The position numbers and the translations under genes are program-made. Of a stretch of 64,000 nucleotides of DNA, positions 56 to 48,627 are shown piece after piece. The notes below the pieces were generated by a model. That model did not search any database, was not told the DNA's origin, and saw only the letters and a list, made by a program, of their open reading frames with translations. Numbering within the stretch: position 1 is the stretch's first letter; every line of letters begins with the position of its first letter. The stretch spans positions 53,568,001-53,632,000 of the forward strand of contig OZ024746.1 in NCBI GenBank assembly GCA_964016885.1, read 5' to 3'. This DNA comes from Eledone cirrhosa. Its lineage: Eukaryota.

Positions 56-144
56 ATTCTCGATAAAAGCACTGGATATGTAGTCCTGAAGATTTCTAAT
101 AAGAATGAAACGCGTAGATTACTTCCCTTGCTTTTATCGAGAAT
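56..144 (+). ncRNA. Type I hammerhead ribozyme
   Basis: gtagtc-CTGAAGA-tttct aata agaat-GAAA-cgcg-TA-gattac. Palindromic stem III ACGCGT. Extended stem attctcgataaaagca/tgcttttatcgagaat. Confidence 0.8.
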
Positions 145-365
145 CTAATTGTAATACGTGACGTATTCTATTCTATAGCGATTAGGTCTTCAAAATGTTT
201 ATTATAAACATACAGAATATTTTCGAATATTCTATGTCTATATTCACATATATATCGCTATTTCAGAGCATTTATTCCAATTTCTAATTTCTGCCGGACC
301 GGCAACCGCTCTTTCAAACCAGTTCCTGTACACAGCTAAGTATTCTATAAGTCTCTAGCTGTGTC

Positions 366-454
366 ATTCTCGATAAAAGCACTGGATATGTAGTCCTGAA
401 GATTTCTAATAAGAATGAAACGCGTAGATTACTTCCCTTGCTTTTATCGAGAAT
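366..454 (+). ncRNA. Type I hammerhead ribozyme (second tandem copy)
   Basis: Identical to 56-144, offset by 310. Confidence 0.8.
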
Positions 455-744
455 CTAATTGTAATACGTGACGTATTCTATTCTATAGCGATTAGGTCTT
501 CAAAATGTTTATTATAAACATACAGAATATTTTCGAATATTCTATGTCTATATTCACATATATATATACGTATGTATATATACATATGTATATATACATA
601 TATATATATATATATATATATATATATATATATATATATATATATATATATATATATACATATGTATATATATATATATATACATATGTATATATATATA
701 TATACATATGTATATATGTATATATACATTTGTATATATATAGG

Positions 745-882
745 AACGATCGACTTTCGTCAAATCGGACCGAGGAAACAATGTTTCCGTTGGTCTTTCC
801 AATTGCTAGTACTATCTATCGGTCGCAACTCCAGGTAGAAGGAGCAACGTGAAATAAAGTGTCTTGCTCAAGGACATAACGC
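745..882 (-). mobile_element. tRNA-derived SINE fragment (family A)
   Basis: Reverse complement of the copies at 25496-25680 and 27801-27980 (gtccttgagcaagacactttatttcacgttgctcc). Confidence 0.75.
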
Positions 883-44365: not shown

Positions 44366-45337
44366 ATAGTTTTACCACGTAAATTCCAAATAAAGCATAT
44401 TACAAACGAACCTGAACCAGAAAGAAAACTCCGTGAACAAATGTCACTCAACAGGATAAACATGGAAATAGAACTCCTAAAATTAAGGGCCACCTCAAAC
44501 GAGCAAGAGTATAAGGATACTGATAAAAATATGGAGGAAGAATGCACTAAAAAGGCCGAGGGAACAACCCTACAAAATTTAATCAAATCGTGGAAACAGG
44601 ACTGCGAGAATGCAGAAACTATTTCCCTTAAACGGTGGGAAAAATCCGAAAACTGGTTCCTCAAATATGAAGAAGACTTTAAAAGGACGCACCAAACAGG
44701 TAACCCCTTTATAAAGCATTTGAACATAACAAGAACTACAACAGACACATTTACACCACCAAACCCAACACACACTAACCACAGGCACATCCCCCACCAA
44801 CACAAACCAAATACGGCCAACTAAACCAAAAGAAACACACCCAACCACCACAACACAGGTTTCCGTAGAAATGCCCCCTACATAAACCAACGACGAAATA
44901 ACATAGATCCAACTCACAACACACACACCACATTCCTCAGAAGAAATCCACCCAGGCCACTTGAAATCACAACAGAACTTACCCACAACCACACCAGACA
45001 TCACCCTCAATCCAACAAAAGACAACCCCCCAGCCTCAACACTCTGTACCACAGAAATAACGCACCCAGACCACATGTACCAACAACAGAACCCTTGCTC
45101 ATCAACAACCACAACACATACCACCCCCACCATCACATTCACCCTCATGAAACAACAAGCTACAGACCCACACGCAACAGACCAACAAAATATAATCACA
45201 CACAAAACTACATTCCTTTTTTAGGGAAAAGCCTGAAATACCAGGATACTCGATGGCCCCCCCCCTCAGGAGAAACCAAAAATAATCAACCTCTCAAAGA
45301 CACCTCTAACCAACACACAAATCAACATTTTAAGTAA
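44363..45337 (+). pseudogene. 5'-truncated PLE ORF1: helical/coiled-coil domain plus H/N/P/T-rich tail, with one in-frame stop
   Basis: One frame reads PIVLPRKFQIKH..EIELLKLRA..WKQDCE..RWEKSENWF.. from 44363 to 45337, with only TAA at 44822. It joins the listed ORFs 44441 and 45095. Confidence 0.7.
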
Positions 45338-47531
45338 GGGCCTGAAATTTACACCTACACCACGTAAACCAAACTTCCCCGAAATGAAGGATGACATCAT
45401 GGAATACTGCCGAAAGCTGCGACTAACGGAATTCTTCCACAACGACACCAACACTGAAGACGAATCACTGGTTAGAAATAAAAGCAATTTCTGCCCACAA
45501 AAGGGAAGAAATAAAGCACTGGACACGTACTGCGAACACATCACCAACTTTCCCTATGAAAAAATTACAAATAAACACACGAAATCAAACCTATCTACAC
45601 ACGAATGGGAAGAATTATTCACACTTAGAAACAACCCTGAGATAACTATCAAAGAAGCCGATAAAGGCAGTACTGTTGTGATTATGAATACGGACTACTA
45701 TAGGACCCTCGCACTTAACATTTTAGAAAACAACACATACTATGAAAAAACAGAAAACTACAAACACACCAAAACAATGGGGAACCTTTTGACCTTACTG
45801 AATAAATACTGCAACAGCTTAACCACAAAAGAGTTTAACTATATAAGCCACTTCAAATGCAATACAAGCTCTTTTTACGGCTTACCGAAACTTCACAAAT
45901 GTAAACCCATAAACGATGCATGTGACACCTCAACCAACAATTACATTGAACTAACACCACCAGAAGACCTAAAACTCAGGCCAATTATAGCAGGCCCTAC
46001 ATGTGAAACCCACAGACTTAGCAACTTTCTGGACATCCTACTGAAACCCTTTCTACAACATATACAGAGCTACATACGAGATGACCTTGACATGCTGAAA
46101 CACCTCCCTAAAACAGTAAGTGCAAATACAATTCTTGTCTCCTTTGACGTAATAAACCTCTACACAAACATACCTCACAACTATGGAATAACAGCAGTCC
46201 AATACTGGCTTAACACACACCCATCAGAAATACCGACACGCATCAACACAGATTTTATCACTGACGGACTCCGCTTTATCCTACAAAATAACTACTTCAC
46301 ATTCAATGGTTCAACATACAGACAAGTATCAGGTACGGCAATGGGCACGAAAGTAGCACCCACATATGCCAACCTAGTCATGGGATTCCATGAACAACAA
46401 ATATACAGTCAGTCCCTTCTCTTATTTGGAGACTCTTTCCACACACACCTCAAAGCCAATTGGAAAAGATATCTAGACGACTGCTTTATCCTATGGCAAG
46501 AAGACATGAACTCACTTACTACGTTTAAAAACATGATAAACAACATAGATAATAACATACAATTCACAATGGAATCCAATCCTAAGGAATTAGCCTTCTT
46601 GGATATTCTCATCTCTGTAATAGACGGGAAATTAGATACAGATATATTCTATAAACCCACAGATTCCAAGCAATACCTCTTTTTCACATCAAGTCACCCA
46701 AAACATACAAAACTTAACATTCCTTACAATTTGGCCAAACGTATATGTACCATAGTATCAGATCCACCTAAACGGGAGCAAAGACTAAAGGAACTAAAAG
46801 ACACCCTTATCTTAAGAGCCTTTCCACTTGAAATAATCAACAATGGAATAGACAGGGCAAAACACCTAAATCCCCATCAACTTAACAATCCAAAACAGAA
46901 AACCACACTCAACACCCTGCCATATGTATCCACTTTCAACCCCAGAAATACCGAAATGTTTGATCACCTACACAAAAACCTCCCCATCCTACTTAAAGAT
47001 GTAAAAATGAAGTCTATTCTTGAAACACACAAGATCCTTAAAAGTAAAAGACAACCCAAATCACTTAAACGCATTCTCACTGGACCAAATATACCCAAAC
47101 CAATCCTCAACCCTACAGTTACCAAATGTGGTAGAACAAACTGTGGAACGTGCCTCTACCTCACTGAAGGACAAACATTTACATTCAAAGATGGCCAAAC
47201 ATTTACAGTAAAAAACAATTTCACCTGCAACTCGGAGAACTTGATTTACGCAATAACTTGCGGTGGGTGCAAACACAACTACATAGGACAGACGGGCACC
47301 TCATTACGCAAAAGAATGACCATCCACCGCCAACAAATCCGGGACGCTAACACAAGAAAAATCCCCTTGAGCAGCCATATTGCGAACTGCGCAGGAATGA
47401 CACTACCCAACTTTAAAATCTTCCCCTTCTACAAGTGCTCAGATTCGTTCACACAACAACAAAGAATAAACAAAGAAAATCTATTCCTTAACAAATTTAA
47501 ACCAAAACTAAACGGGTTATCACCCCAATAG
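45237..47531 (+). CDS. PLE reverse transcriptase + GIY-YIG endonuclease
   Basis: Motifs IINLS..LSKGLKFTPTP (upstream of the first ATG at 45384), ADKG, FYGLPKLHK, LRPII, SFDVINLYTNI, GTAMG, RYLDD, FLD, FYKPTD..SSHP, CGRTNCGTC linker, NLIY..CGGC..YIGQT..H..H. Confidence 0.97.
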   Translation, partial: NTRILDGPPPQEKPKIINLSKTPLTNTQINILSKGLKFTPTPRKPNFPEMKDDIMEYCRKLRLTEFFHNDTNTEDESLVRNKSNFCPQKGRNKALDTYCEHITNFPYEKITNKHTKSNLSTHEWEELFTLRNNPEITIKEADKGSTVVIMNTDYYRTLALNILENNTYYEKTENYKHTKTMGNLLTLLNKYCNSLTTKEFNYISHFKCNTSSFYGLPKLHKCKPINDACDTSTNNYIELTPPEDLKLRPIIAGPTCETHRLSNFLDILLKPFLQHIQSYIRDDLDMLKHLPKTVSANTILVSFDVINLYTNIPHNYGITAVQYWLNTHPSEIPTRINTDFITDGLRFILQNNYFTFNGSTYRQVSGTAMGTKVAPTYANLVMGFHEQQIYSQSLLLFGDSFHTHLKANWKRYLDDCFILWQEDMNSLTTFKNMINNIDNNIQFTMESNPKELAFLDILISVIDGKLDTDIFYKPTDSKQYLFFTSSHPKHTKLNIPYNLAKRICTIVSDPPKREQRLKELKDTLILRAFPLEIINNGIDRAKHLNPHQLNNPKQKTTLNTLPYVSTFNPRNTEMFDHLHKNLPILLKDVKMKSILETHKILKSKRQPKSLKRILTGPNIPKPILNPTVTKCGRTNCGTCLYLTEGQTFTFKDGQTFTVKNNFTCNSENLIYAITCGGCKHNYIGQTGTSLRKRMTIHRQQIRDANTRKIPLSSHIANCAGMTLPNFKIFPFYKCSDSFTQQQRINKENLFLNKFKPKLNGLSPQ

Positions 47532-48579
47532 AATTGTCATAAAATATAAACACACATACGCACGGAATCACTACTATTAAAGACCAGAGACCAATTCTGT
47601 AGAATCAGGTTTATTCATTGACAGACCATGCCTTTGTGTGACCAACACATCCATGTTAAACCCTGCACGTGCACACACATATATCTATATATATATGCGC
47701 ACACAGAATTATTTTAATTTCACTGCCCCAACTTCTTATATTATGGAAAAAATATATGTGTCTGTATGTATATATATATATATATATTTGAAGGCCATTT
47801 CTCTGTGTGTGGGTGTATGTATGTGTGTGTGTGTGTGTGTGAGTATGTGTGTGCATGTGGATGTATGTATTGTGTGTGCGTGTGTGTGTGTGTGTGTATG
47901 TATGTGGGTATCTGGATGTATGCGTATGTGTATATATATATATATATATGCATGTGTGTGTGTGTGTGTGTATATATATGTGTGTGTATGTGTGTATATA
48001 TATGTGTGTGTGTGTGTGTGTATGTATGTGTGTATCTGGATGTATGTGTATGTATATATATGTGTGTGTGTGTGTATATATATATATATATATATATATA
48101 TATATGTGTGTGTGTGTATGTGTATATATATGTGTGTGTGTGTGTATGTGTGTATGTATATGTATGTGTGTGTGTATGTATGTGTGTATATGTATATATA
48201 TATATATATATATATATATATATGTATATGTATATGTATGTATGTGTGGATGAAGGTATGTGTGTATATATAGGTGTAAGTGCACTAAATCCTTTTCTAT
48301 CACGCTCCACTCTCCTACCCATCACAGGAAGATATATGTGTGTGTATATTGCTTCCACCCCCTCACTGACCAGCAGCTGGCGATTGCTAAATCTGACCTT
48401 TATAAAATAACCCACACCCCAAATAACTTCTCATTCACTACCAGAAAGGGACACAGCAGTCAACCTGTTGTTGCTACCTAGATGAAAACTGCTATGAAAT
48501 CCCACAATGAATTTTATACTTGAATTTTCAAGTCTCAAATTTTAACTCTTCGTATTATTAATTTTTCTTAATATTAATC

Positions 48580-48627
48580 AACATTTGAAAAGATGGCTTT
48601 TGCAGACCCATCGAAACCGGTCATTTT
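48580..48627 (+). ncRNA. Type I hammerhead, U3-A8 variant, in the PLE 3' UTR
   Basis: aacat-TTGAAAA-gatgg..ccatc-GAAA-ccgg-TC-atttt. Confidence 0.6.

Follow-up and report, generated by a model that had tools for sequence, protein, structure and literature searches.

The islands of unique sequence between the (TA)n arrays of this 64,000-nt stretch of Eledone cirrhosa DNA (hereafter, the window) are very probably the insertion ends of many Penelope-like element (PLE) families plus a few ORF-less tandem retrozymes, each with a type I hammerhead ribozyme (HHR) motif and likely copied into (TA)n by PLE endonuclease-reverse transcriptases (RTs). Our curated list comprises 27 type I HHR motifs in 19 sequence families, between positions 81 and 48627 (Table 1). 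Once inverted and tandem copies are merged, about 20-21 insertions, by manual count, lie behind them. As a phenomenon the archipelago is already known, here on a large scale, and its families are new ones within recognised PLE clades and retrozymes. Having about 19 families, many of which are young, side by side in a single window makes it possible to compare how PLE insertions end.

Hammerhead motifs in the window

A descriptor search for a canonical core with a stem II of up to 60 nt gave 14 matches in the window, against 0.01 in 100 block-wise dinucleotide shuffles of it. Extending stem II to 150 nt gave 16 matches (0.04 in shuffles), and allowing core variants 18 (0.42 in shuffles). Nine of the 27 motifs were added by eye beyond the descriptor and are weaker or variant. 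Intact CUGANGA and GAAA boxes with a UH site were present in 25 motifs (20 with C3-G8, 5 with U3-A8); the mutated cores are those at 8234 (CCGAAGA) and 42125 (CAGAAGA). Stem I was paired at 4/4 positions in 19 of the 27 motifs (only 2/4 at 21907), and stem III was wholly self-complementary in 17. Among 28 distinct contexts from the window and a genome sample (56 stretches of 10 kb each), taken with no selection on stem I, 17 had all four pairs, against 2.0 after partner swaps (maximum 8 of 5000) and 0-5 in slid registers, with four or more pair types at each position. These results confirm, at the level of sequence, the presence of type I hammerhead motifs. An earlier sequence-only reading had claimed about 27 HHRs from roughly 15 or more families ending at 48627, and had proposed shuffled controls and stem covariation as checks; our counts agree with it, and both checks came out in its favour. 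Its named representatives were all recovered (16207, 16963, 27625 and 37046, our motifs -16281, +16972, -27668 and +37053), and its end corresponds to the U3-A8 motif +48585.

A chance origin of the motifs in DNA rich in AT and palindromes has next to no probability: no Rfam hammerhead family matched the window at gathering score and the U3-A8 descriptor made 6 false matches within one minisatellite (L043), but the window shuffles, the sample shuffles (29 matches vs 0.1) and the pairing of unselected stems refute it, as do the many conserved genomic copies per family. The best Rfam match was Hammerhead_HH9 at 381-446 (E 0.24, 17 bits against a threshold of 52), there was none within 16130-17220, and an E-value scan of the whole window gave only miRNA models on TA repeats among the 150 of 833 matches listed. 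Rfam models probably fit minimal PLE HHR variants poorly. We discarded as incomplete or chance the CTGANGA cores at 28166, 41279, 57486, 45454, 55802, 60504 and 60654 and several further ones on the minus strand; four F20 sites with the 3' half of an HHR only were left out of the 27.

Table 1. Features of the HHR-bearing islands, by position in the window; element classes are putative assignments.
Feature	Position	Strand	Details
F1, 3' end of 310-nt-unit retrozyme array	1..556	+	HHRs 81-121 and 391-431
F2 HHR	2128..2187	+	bulged hairpin starts at 2246
F3 HHR	4557..4595	-	another copy at 8813-8851 (-); inverted pair makes up island 4441-4699
F4 HHR, end of Hydra-clade PLE	4891..4946	-	pLTR-ORF-pLTR copy in L175, HHRs 4048 nt apart
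F5 HHR, U3-A8 core, end of Neptune-like PLE	5293..5332	+	links in L128, L195
F6 inverted pair of PLE 3' halves, GIY-YIG fragments	6385..8494		HHRs 6547-6591 (-), 8229-8273 (+, mutated core)
F8 Hydra-clade PLE, inverted arm and sense arm with tail	11742..12276		HHRs 11786-11845 (-), 12084-12143 (+); hairpin 12195
F9 HHR, 96-nt stem II region	13113..13237	-
F10, fragment of ~460-nt circularly permuted ORF-less unit	16134..16375	-	HHR 16207-16286
F11, two arms of 549-558-nt tandem retrozyme	16371..17222		HHR 16967-17036 (+); hairpins 16510 (-), 16406 (-), 16786 (+)
F7 PLE 3' half with GIY-YIG fragment	17507..18717	+	HHR 18412-18455
F12 Hydra-clade PLE, inverted pair and tail	19040..19489		HHRs 19086-19151 (-), 19285-19349 (+); hairpin 19397
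F19 inverted pair of 3' ends	19797..20892		U3-A8 HHRs 19923-19970 (-), 20705-20752 (+)
F13 HHR, 116-nt stem II region	21062..21408	+	long bulged hairpin from 21278
F14 HHR, weak stem I	21902..21939	+	upstream PLE endonuclease region seen at a single locus (L136)
F15, two-armed copy of 460-468-nt tandem ORF-less unit	25975..26503		HHR 26170-26210 (+)
F16 fold-back end	27620..27787		HHR 27625-27673 (-); hairpin 27722 (+)
F20 fold-back end, 3' half of HHR only	28506..28663		hairpin 28592; further half-HHR sites 5143-5247, 5584-5770, 32970-33120
F17 HHR	37048..37103	+	genomic copies stop 6 nt before hairpin
F18 HHR, mutated core, Hydra-type	42120..42170	+	truncated copy at 9107-9172
F19 5'-truncated inverted PLE copy	42221..44365	-	HHR 42361-42408
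F19 stop-free 764-aa RT + GIY-YIG frame, Neptune/Nematis-type	45237..47531	+
F19 U3-A8 HHR, 3' end of element with 764-aa frame	48580..48627	+

Penelope-like element families

We charted repeats by masked self-BLAST of the window, and considered a family linked to coding sequence when PLE RT/GIY-YIG coding sequence was found in the window or in genomic copies. Copies of F1, F2, F3, F6, F7, F9, F14, F16, F18, F19 and F20 were drawn only from 212 fetched loci. Protein-coding PLEs of the Hydra and Neptune/Nematis types account for 15 of the 27 motifs and 9 of the 19 families, mostly as 5'-truncated, often inverted ends; since these families trace to PLE coding sequence, their islands are truncated ends of coding elements. 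The 3' ends of copies are fixed at TA and their 5' truncation varies; arms inverted head-to-head are frequent, and a tail is present on one side. Fixed ends, truncation and inversion were seen in F8, F12, F4, F17 and F13.

The translations of F4, F8 and F12 carry DKT for DKG, RWR rather than RWK (one F12 copy, L126, has a stop codon there), a CxCX5C linker, and CxxC and CxH around E and N. All three families also show (TA)n insertion and an HHR near the 3' end, and by these motifs they would be Hydra-clade PLEs. An endonuclease region lies upstream of the F4 HHR in several loci; the F8 3' end is common to 20 copies; L123 has a full F8 ORF with two hairpins before its ATG; and F12 reading frames reach 741 aa (L121) and 752 aa (L126). 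In F18, a Hydra-type endonuclease region was found 0.86-0.89 kb upstream in L052 and L172. The 764-aa frame of F19 has GLKF, DKG, YLDD and CX4CxxC motifs, with GIY-YIG at the C-terminus, suggesting a Neptune/Nematis-type PLE; the same assignment is suggested for F5, F6 and F7 from fragments only. The Neptune-like endonuclease region of F5 lies 0.9-1.4 kb upstream with no TA array between (L128, L195). Pfam gave only weak RVT_1 and GIY-YIG matches. Other ORF links were dismissed as mere neighbours, with TA arrays between or across an inversion joint: F11 in L002, F10 in L146, F13 in L039, L144 and L187, and those of F15, F17 and F20.

ORF-less units and families without links

Retrozyme-like ORF-less tandem or permuted units account for 5 of the 27 motifs and four families (F1, F10, F11 and F15). 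Units are spaced by 310 nt in F1, 549-558 nt in F11 and 460-468 nt in F15, and the longest ATG-ORFs are of 30-60 aa. With tandem ORF-less units and one type I HHR per unit, these three would fit the non-LTR retrozyme class. In F1 and L063 taken together, unit anchors recur every 310 nt, 10 of them forward and 5 inverted; most units are identical, and TA arrays lie at both ends. Two copies fold into a double-HHR form. F1 was found in no RNA dataset among those listed; it appears as one 340-nt contig in three sequencing runs of unknown kind, fitting a tandem or a circle alike. F10 showed no same-strand pair among 14 motifs, and its circularity is suggested by a permuted read-through in L159 only. 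Neither ORF link nor tandem array was found for six families (F2, F3, F9, F13, F16 and F17; 7 motifs) in the window and fetched loci, and these are left unassigned. F13 is unchanged across its full 344 nt at 39 of the 40 places scored, indicating a very young family. A complete U3-A8 HHR of F20 is found in L073.

A rival reading, close to the sequence-only one, takes most islands for independent, self-amplifying non-coding HHR RNAs, retrozymes or SINE-like. The four ORF-less families would support this, as would the 39 of 40 identical places of F13, which has no ORF link of its own, and the fact that short copies greatly outnumber long ones. We nevertheless consider it quite improbable, given the PLE coding sequence linked to 9 of the 19 families and the F8 and F12 copies, whose 5' extents differ and reach up to the full ORF; the families of the F4, F8, F12 and F19 islands have RT/endonuclease ORFs, at variance with the lack of coding capacity of a retrozyme. 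What stands of the sequence-only reading are the type I HHRs, the many families and the mobilisation by PLEs, while the mostly non-coding community gives way to nine PLE-coding families and only four ORF-less ones.

Association with (TA)n

In the window, (TA)6 is found no more than 300 bp from 24 of the 27 motifs, but also from 54% of the non-array sequence, and no motif lies beyond position 49000. In the genome sample this holds for 40 of 43 descriptor matches (33 of 35 without 8 doubtful ones), against 27% of the background, bearing out the earlier proposal of (TA)n as a shared landing zone. TA and HHR content of the window are both about 4-fold above the sample; the window is not special, its HHR density being as TA content predicts. 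The correlation is modest (rho 0.35), and some TA-dense sampled stretches (L052, L057, L059) had no descriptor match. By extrapolation from the sample, the genome would hold some 150,000 intact motifs. The community had also been called probably uncatalogued: the families are new, but the link of (TA)n targeting and HHR is already in print for Hydra-clade PLEs, including the octopus family Hydra-1_Obim (PMC8557442).

Alternatively, the insertions themselves could in large part have made or lengthened the TA arrays, by RT slippage or by repair where the DNA was cut, so that the arrays would not have been there beforehand as landing zones. Pure TA adjoins nearly every insertion end, and repeated element tails inside window arrays (22360, 23368) imply local expansion. 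We regard this as unlikely on the whole, since stretches with 13-45% TA yet no HHR match exist, and Hydra and Naiad PLEs are listed as preferring (TA)n for insertion (PMC8557442).

A bulged twin hairpin at insertion ends

In the mechanism that we propose, the PLE enzyme would cut (TA)n, and cDNA would be primed by each of the two DNA ends, at two sites internal to the RNA, with most cDNAs ending within a few hundred bases; the tail corresponds to what lies between two RT start sites (as described in PMC11167929). Because the HHR is a short way upstream of these sites, almost all stubs would keep it, and because TA is left on both sides of each insertion, TA-rich tracts would gather stubs of all families. 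For the HHRs, cleavage is predicted chiefly as dimers within tandem transcripts, and lone stubs are probably inert passengers; HHR counts in such genomes would then mostly tally dead retroelement stubs rather than functional ribozyme genes.

A bulged hairpin (RCTY-stem-loop-stem-TY-GAGY) sits a few bases 3' of the insertion ends, twice per element. With sites picked by primary sequence, and an upper stem of at least 3 bp with a 2-nt bulge as criterion, it was found in 27 of 53 held-out sites (9 of the 27 from one family), against 2.9 expected from interior shuffles (maximum 9 of 2000). Bulges of 0, 1, 3 and 4 nt instead of 2 were found at 3, 2, 3 and 2 sites, respectively. In 6 of 8 contexts the modal TA junction precedes the hairpin by 6-9 nt, and 4 of the 8 show an overlap of 3 nt. 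The 549-nt retrozyme F11 keeps both hairpins: of its 30 TA-abutting ends, 28 fall at two sites that are 100 nt apart, with one hairpin just 3' of each site. No hairpin matches of their own were found for F1, F10 and F15. Among 10 window cases the exact fold was the MFE structure in 5, shifted in 2 and absent in 3, and folding z values (-2.4 to +0.2) are weak on their own. By eye, the twin hairpin is also seen in sea-cucumber consensus sequences, and a variant in a copepod one (PMC8557442 supplement). We did not find it described in print: "hairpin" and "stem-loop" have no matches in the main text of PMC8557442, and a supplementary RNA-fold figure of PMC11167929 might show it.

We lean towards a Hydra-clade start site set by a protein-bound bulged hairpin together with a UAU, 6-9 nt upstream, that would pair with the cut TA primer; F11 would be mobilised because it keeps both hairpins. 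The wider proposal, which could equally well fail, is that Hydra-clade PLEs read this two-part RNA address twice per RNA, much as telomerase aligns a primer on an internal template, giving both arms and the tail and mobilising F11, so that the cis element would tell which PLE clade moves which retrozyme, in a genome that may hold one of the densest reported ribozyme-motif populations, of the order of 10^5 intact copies. PAc, the one PLE assayed in vitro, started RT at positions lacking homology to the cut DNA and did not need HHR cleavage (PMC11167929), evidence against primer pairing in general.

The hairpin may instead be real but serve as a DNA-level endonuclease site, part of an internal promoter or a pre-ORF translation signal, its place at the ends being secondary. 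We find this doubtful, if deserving of attention: hairpins directly precede the ORF start in L123 and L175, folding stability is low, and the D. virilis tail is needed for endonuclease recognition of DNA (as cited in PMC11167929); against it, about 16 sequence groups (by eye) differ in the upper stem yet keep pairing, G-U pairs and a fixed 2-nt bulge, and an ORF-less retrozyme has kept both hairpins with ends just before each. With the hairpin as a start signal, both PLE choice of internal start sites and retrozyme recruitment of the PLE enzyme become testable with an existing in vitro assay.

Comparison with known systems

The Hydra clade of C-terminal endonuclease-bearing PLEs, including Hydra-1_Obim, as described by Craig et al. 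2021 (PMC8557442), shares with our families DKT, RW(K/R), the CxCX5C linker, C-terminal CxxC and CxH, (TA)n insertion, an HHR ~50-200 nt from the 3' end, and inverted 5'-truncated copies with a tail. Differences are the 3' UTRs of 0.8-1.6 kb here, and the many families at very high copy number, against the 27 families, one from octopus, listed there. The PAc Poseidon element of Anolis, studied by Frangieh et al. 2024 (PMC11167929), has a tail defined by two internal RT start sites, AT-rich cleavage, an HHR upstream of the start sites and a stem-loop at the start region, features that our elements would share.

HHRs from published genomic counts are likewise type I with palindromic stem III, an extra base after A9 and the U3-A8 variant, with opposite-strand pairs 100-700 bp apart and mostly single motifs from truncated PLEs. 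Unlike that set, some families here show a stable stem III or a stem II region that runs to 50-116 nt. Those counts are of ~2,000-9,000 per genome, against ~150,000 extrapolated here, with differing descriptors.

Metazoan non-LTR retrozymes, as presented in PMC7229834 and bioRxiv 10.64898/2026.07.22.740005, similarly consist of tandem units, 310-560 nt long, that lack an ORF and carry a single type I HHR; in these sources PLE mobilisation is proposed and derivation from pLTRs argued, the mechanism of mobilisation being left open. Our arrays differ from the retrozymes described there in having inverted arms of the PLE type, in being flanked by TA and in ending at two fixed positions, and a specific cis element is common to F11 and Hydra-clade PLEs.

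Hammerhead motifs in the window

The sequence-only reading described an archipelago of about 27 hammerhead ribozymes (HHRs) from roughly 15 families at least, and this observation is confirmed: the window contains 27 HHR motifs, at the positions first noticed, from 19 families. With a purpose-written type I hammerhead descriptor, and 100 shuffles of the window's non-array sequence as controls, we detected 14 motifs with canonical core and a stem II no longer than 60 nt (0.01 in shuffles), 16 with stem II up to 150 nt (0.04), and 18 when core variants were allowed (0.42). Nine more, variant or decayed copies, were found by eye. 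Stem I is fully paired (4/4) in 19 of the 27 and stem III fully self-complementary in 17, and two have mutated cores. When motifs were picked by their core and by stems II and III, without selection on stem I, the latter was 4/4 paired in 17 of 28 distinct contexts, compared with 2.0 for swapped partners and 0–5 for slid registers. Single-strand folds contained stem I in four of five HHRs tested, and two copies of family F1 folded into a double-hammerhead form at -22.3 kcal/mol (monomer, -8.1). The HHRs of F11 and F16, whose stem III is longer, are predicted to cleave as monomers, and that of F1 only as a dimer. At Rfam thresholds, the window motifs were not recognised. Descriptors with a short stem II would also overlook HHRs whose core boxes are widely separated (Table).

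The (TA)-type arrays make up 49% of positions 1–28100, 14% of 28101–49000 and 5% of the remaining window. Pieces of elements are repeated within them, which suggests segmental expansion of the arrays.

Table. Features of the window, and one of a fetched locus (F, sequence families; tail, one-sided extension beyond the inverted arms of an insertion).
Position	Strand	Feature	Remarks
743-887; 25490-25696; 27801-27983		TA-flanked repeat	segment common to a SINE-like family (33859-34203, 39611-39705); no HHR
1084-1306		abundant TA-flanked repeat	matched 10 times, in 5 of the 56 stretches sampled; no HHR hit
13113-13237; 21062-21206		HHRs with 78-116 nt separating the core boxes	recurrent across several families
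16134-17222		chimeric two-armed insertion	left arm F10 into F11 via ~5-nt overlap; right arm F11
22360-22423; 23368-23431; 23807-23955		recurring F8 tails and F13 piece	inside long degenerate TA arrays
27469-27603	minus/plus	back-to-back tails, F7-like (minus) and F18-like (plus)	TA absent between them
41852-42034; 48885-49100; 56675; 58397-58484		fold-back islands or hairpin sites	no complete HHR
42221-44365	inverted	truncated copy of the F19 element with the 764-aa frame	
45217-45226		UUUUUUA heptamer	between upstream frame (44342-45337, stop-interrupted) and RT frame
45237-47531		RT + GIY-YIG frame, 764 aa	GLKF, DKG, CX4CxxC motifs
54700-56419	minus	decayed LINE RT fragment	RTE-like by eye
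L124:6028-7957		host-like reading frame, 643 aa	close to F8 copy

Density across the genome

From 19 large contigs we drew 56 stretches, each 10 kb long and placed at round coordinates; three stretches adjacent to the window were excluded. The association with (TA)n claimed from sequence alone extends to this sample: 40 of its 43 descriptor motifs lie within 300 bp of (TA)6, compared with 27% of background positions. A single minisatellite accounts for six of the 43, all of them false hits, and two more are doubtful; among the others, 33 of 35 are within that distance. Canonical cores alone numbered 29 (0.1 in shuffles), which extrapolates, from a small systematic sample without small contigs, to about 155,000 motifs in the 3.0-Gb genome (bootstrap 75,000–251,000). 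The window exceeds the sample 4.0-fold in TA fraction and 4.2-fold in HHR density, and so represents a tract rich in TA within a genome rich in HHRs. The 212 fetched sequences together, which are a biased set, contained 364 HHR hits in 34 clusters.

Ends of Penelope-like elements

In a masked self-comparison of the window, many islands proved to be pairs inverted head to head and extended on one side only; inverted truncated arms with a tail are typical of insertions of Penelope-like elements (PLEs) (PMC8557442, PMC11167929). In F19, a Neptune/Nematis-type PLE with four of the 27 window motifs, a U3-A8 HHR lies inside the 3' end of an element encoding RT and GIY-YIG endonuclease. A frameshifted ORF1 is mentioned for PLEs in the Fig. 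1 legend of PMC8557442.

The genome was also searched with eight families plus F11 (nine in all), scoring for each the best 40 of 304–2043 candidates. Among the places scored, copies have 3' ends fixed at TA and a variable 5' extent. Long copies of F8, F12 and F4 extend to RT-endonuclease frames with DKT, RWR and CxCX5C, marks that they share with the Hydra clade (PMC8557442). Endonuclease sequence lies upstream of F18 and F5, and at a single locus of F14, with no intervening TA array, and GIY-YIG fragments precede the F6 and F7 HHRs within the window. In total, 15 of the 27 motifs, from nine families, are linked to PLE coding sequence, and seven (F2, F3, F9, F13, F16 and F17) are assigned neither to these nor to the retrozymes. 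The initial interpretation, a community of PLE-mobilised RNAs in (TA)n, most without coding sequence here, is partly supported: the many families, the PLE connection and the TA association stand, but the motifs are mostly ends of coding elements. The fold-back islands and hairpin sites lacking a complete HHR are probably PLE ends cut off downstream of the core.

EN+ PLEs cleave AT-rich DNA (PMC8557442, PMC11167929), and Hydra-clade families including Hydra-1_Obim combine (TA)n insertion with HHRs (PMC8557442). In one Poseidon element, two internal RT start sites delimit the tail, and insertion in vitro did not need HHR cleavage (PMC11167929). In the mechanism we propose, cDNA synthesis would begin 50–200 nt downstream of the HHR and in most cases terminate early, so that most stubs would retain the HHR and lose the ORF; such stubs would accumulate where TA is abundant.

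ORF-less retrozymes

Four families (F1, F10, F11 and F15; five of the 27 motifs) look like retrozymes, around which we found no ATG-initiated frame longer than 79 aa. Tandem units measure 310 nt in F1, 549–558 nt in F11 and 460–468 nt in F15, and F10 looks like a permuted unit, about 460 nt long. In the window, F1 constitutes the end of an array whose unit anchors (10 forward, five inverted) lie between TA arrays. The F10/F11 junction differs from both usual F11 ends and, among the best 40 places scored, occurs in this insertion only. Template switching between two retrozyme RNAs would account for the chimera, as would a deletion at a later stage.

A putative start-site hairpin

Comparison of tails disclosed a bulged hairpin (RCTY-stem-loop-stem-TY-GAGY) a few bases 3' of insertion ends, twice per element, with 13 descriptor hits in the window. 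The sample, independent of the hairpin definition, contained 37 hits within 200 bp of TA (5.6 in shuffles); overall hits were 75 versus 42, so this loose descriptor yields many by chance. With sites selected by primary sequence only, an upper stem of at least 3 bp and a 2-nt bulge were found at 27 of 53 sites, compared with 2.9 in interior shuffles and 2–3 for other bulge sizes. Nine of these 27 are F20, and by eye there are about 16 distinct sequence groups. The hairpin folds weakly, with the exact fold in 5 of 10 window cases.

The modal TA junction precedes the hairpin by 6–9 nt in six of eight contexts, with a 3-nt overlap in four of eight. Full-length F8 has two hairpins ahead of the ATG, one behind each end site; a second is also present in F4 and F20, and F2, F13, F16 and F17 possess the hairpin. 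Of 30 ends that abut TA in the retrozyme F11, 12 fall at unit position 215 and 16 at 315, uncertain by a few bases, and hairpins lie at 220 and 324. F1, F10 and F15 gave no hairpin hit.

Comparison with known systems

For fluke, coelacanth and frog, published counts of minimal HHRs are about 2,000–9,000, and for axolotl as many as 120,000 retrozyme copies are published; descriptors differ between these studies and our extrapolation for Eledone cirrhosa. We did not find the hairpin described in the literature searched, though supplementary figures might depict it. By eye, it is nevertheless present in published sea-cucumber Hydra consensus sequences, twice in Hydra-1_Ajap, and as a variant in a copepod one. 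Its weak folding, the lack of hits in F1, F10 and F15, and the RT starts of the Poseidon element, which are non-homologous (PMC11167929), count against reading it as a start site. The system comprises a large number of new families whose kinds are known, namely ends of Hydra and Neptune/Nematis-type PLEs and non-LTR retrozymes. Its interest to specialists lies in its scale and in the shared putative start-site hairpin, above all in that an ORF-less retrozyme has kept it.
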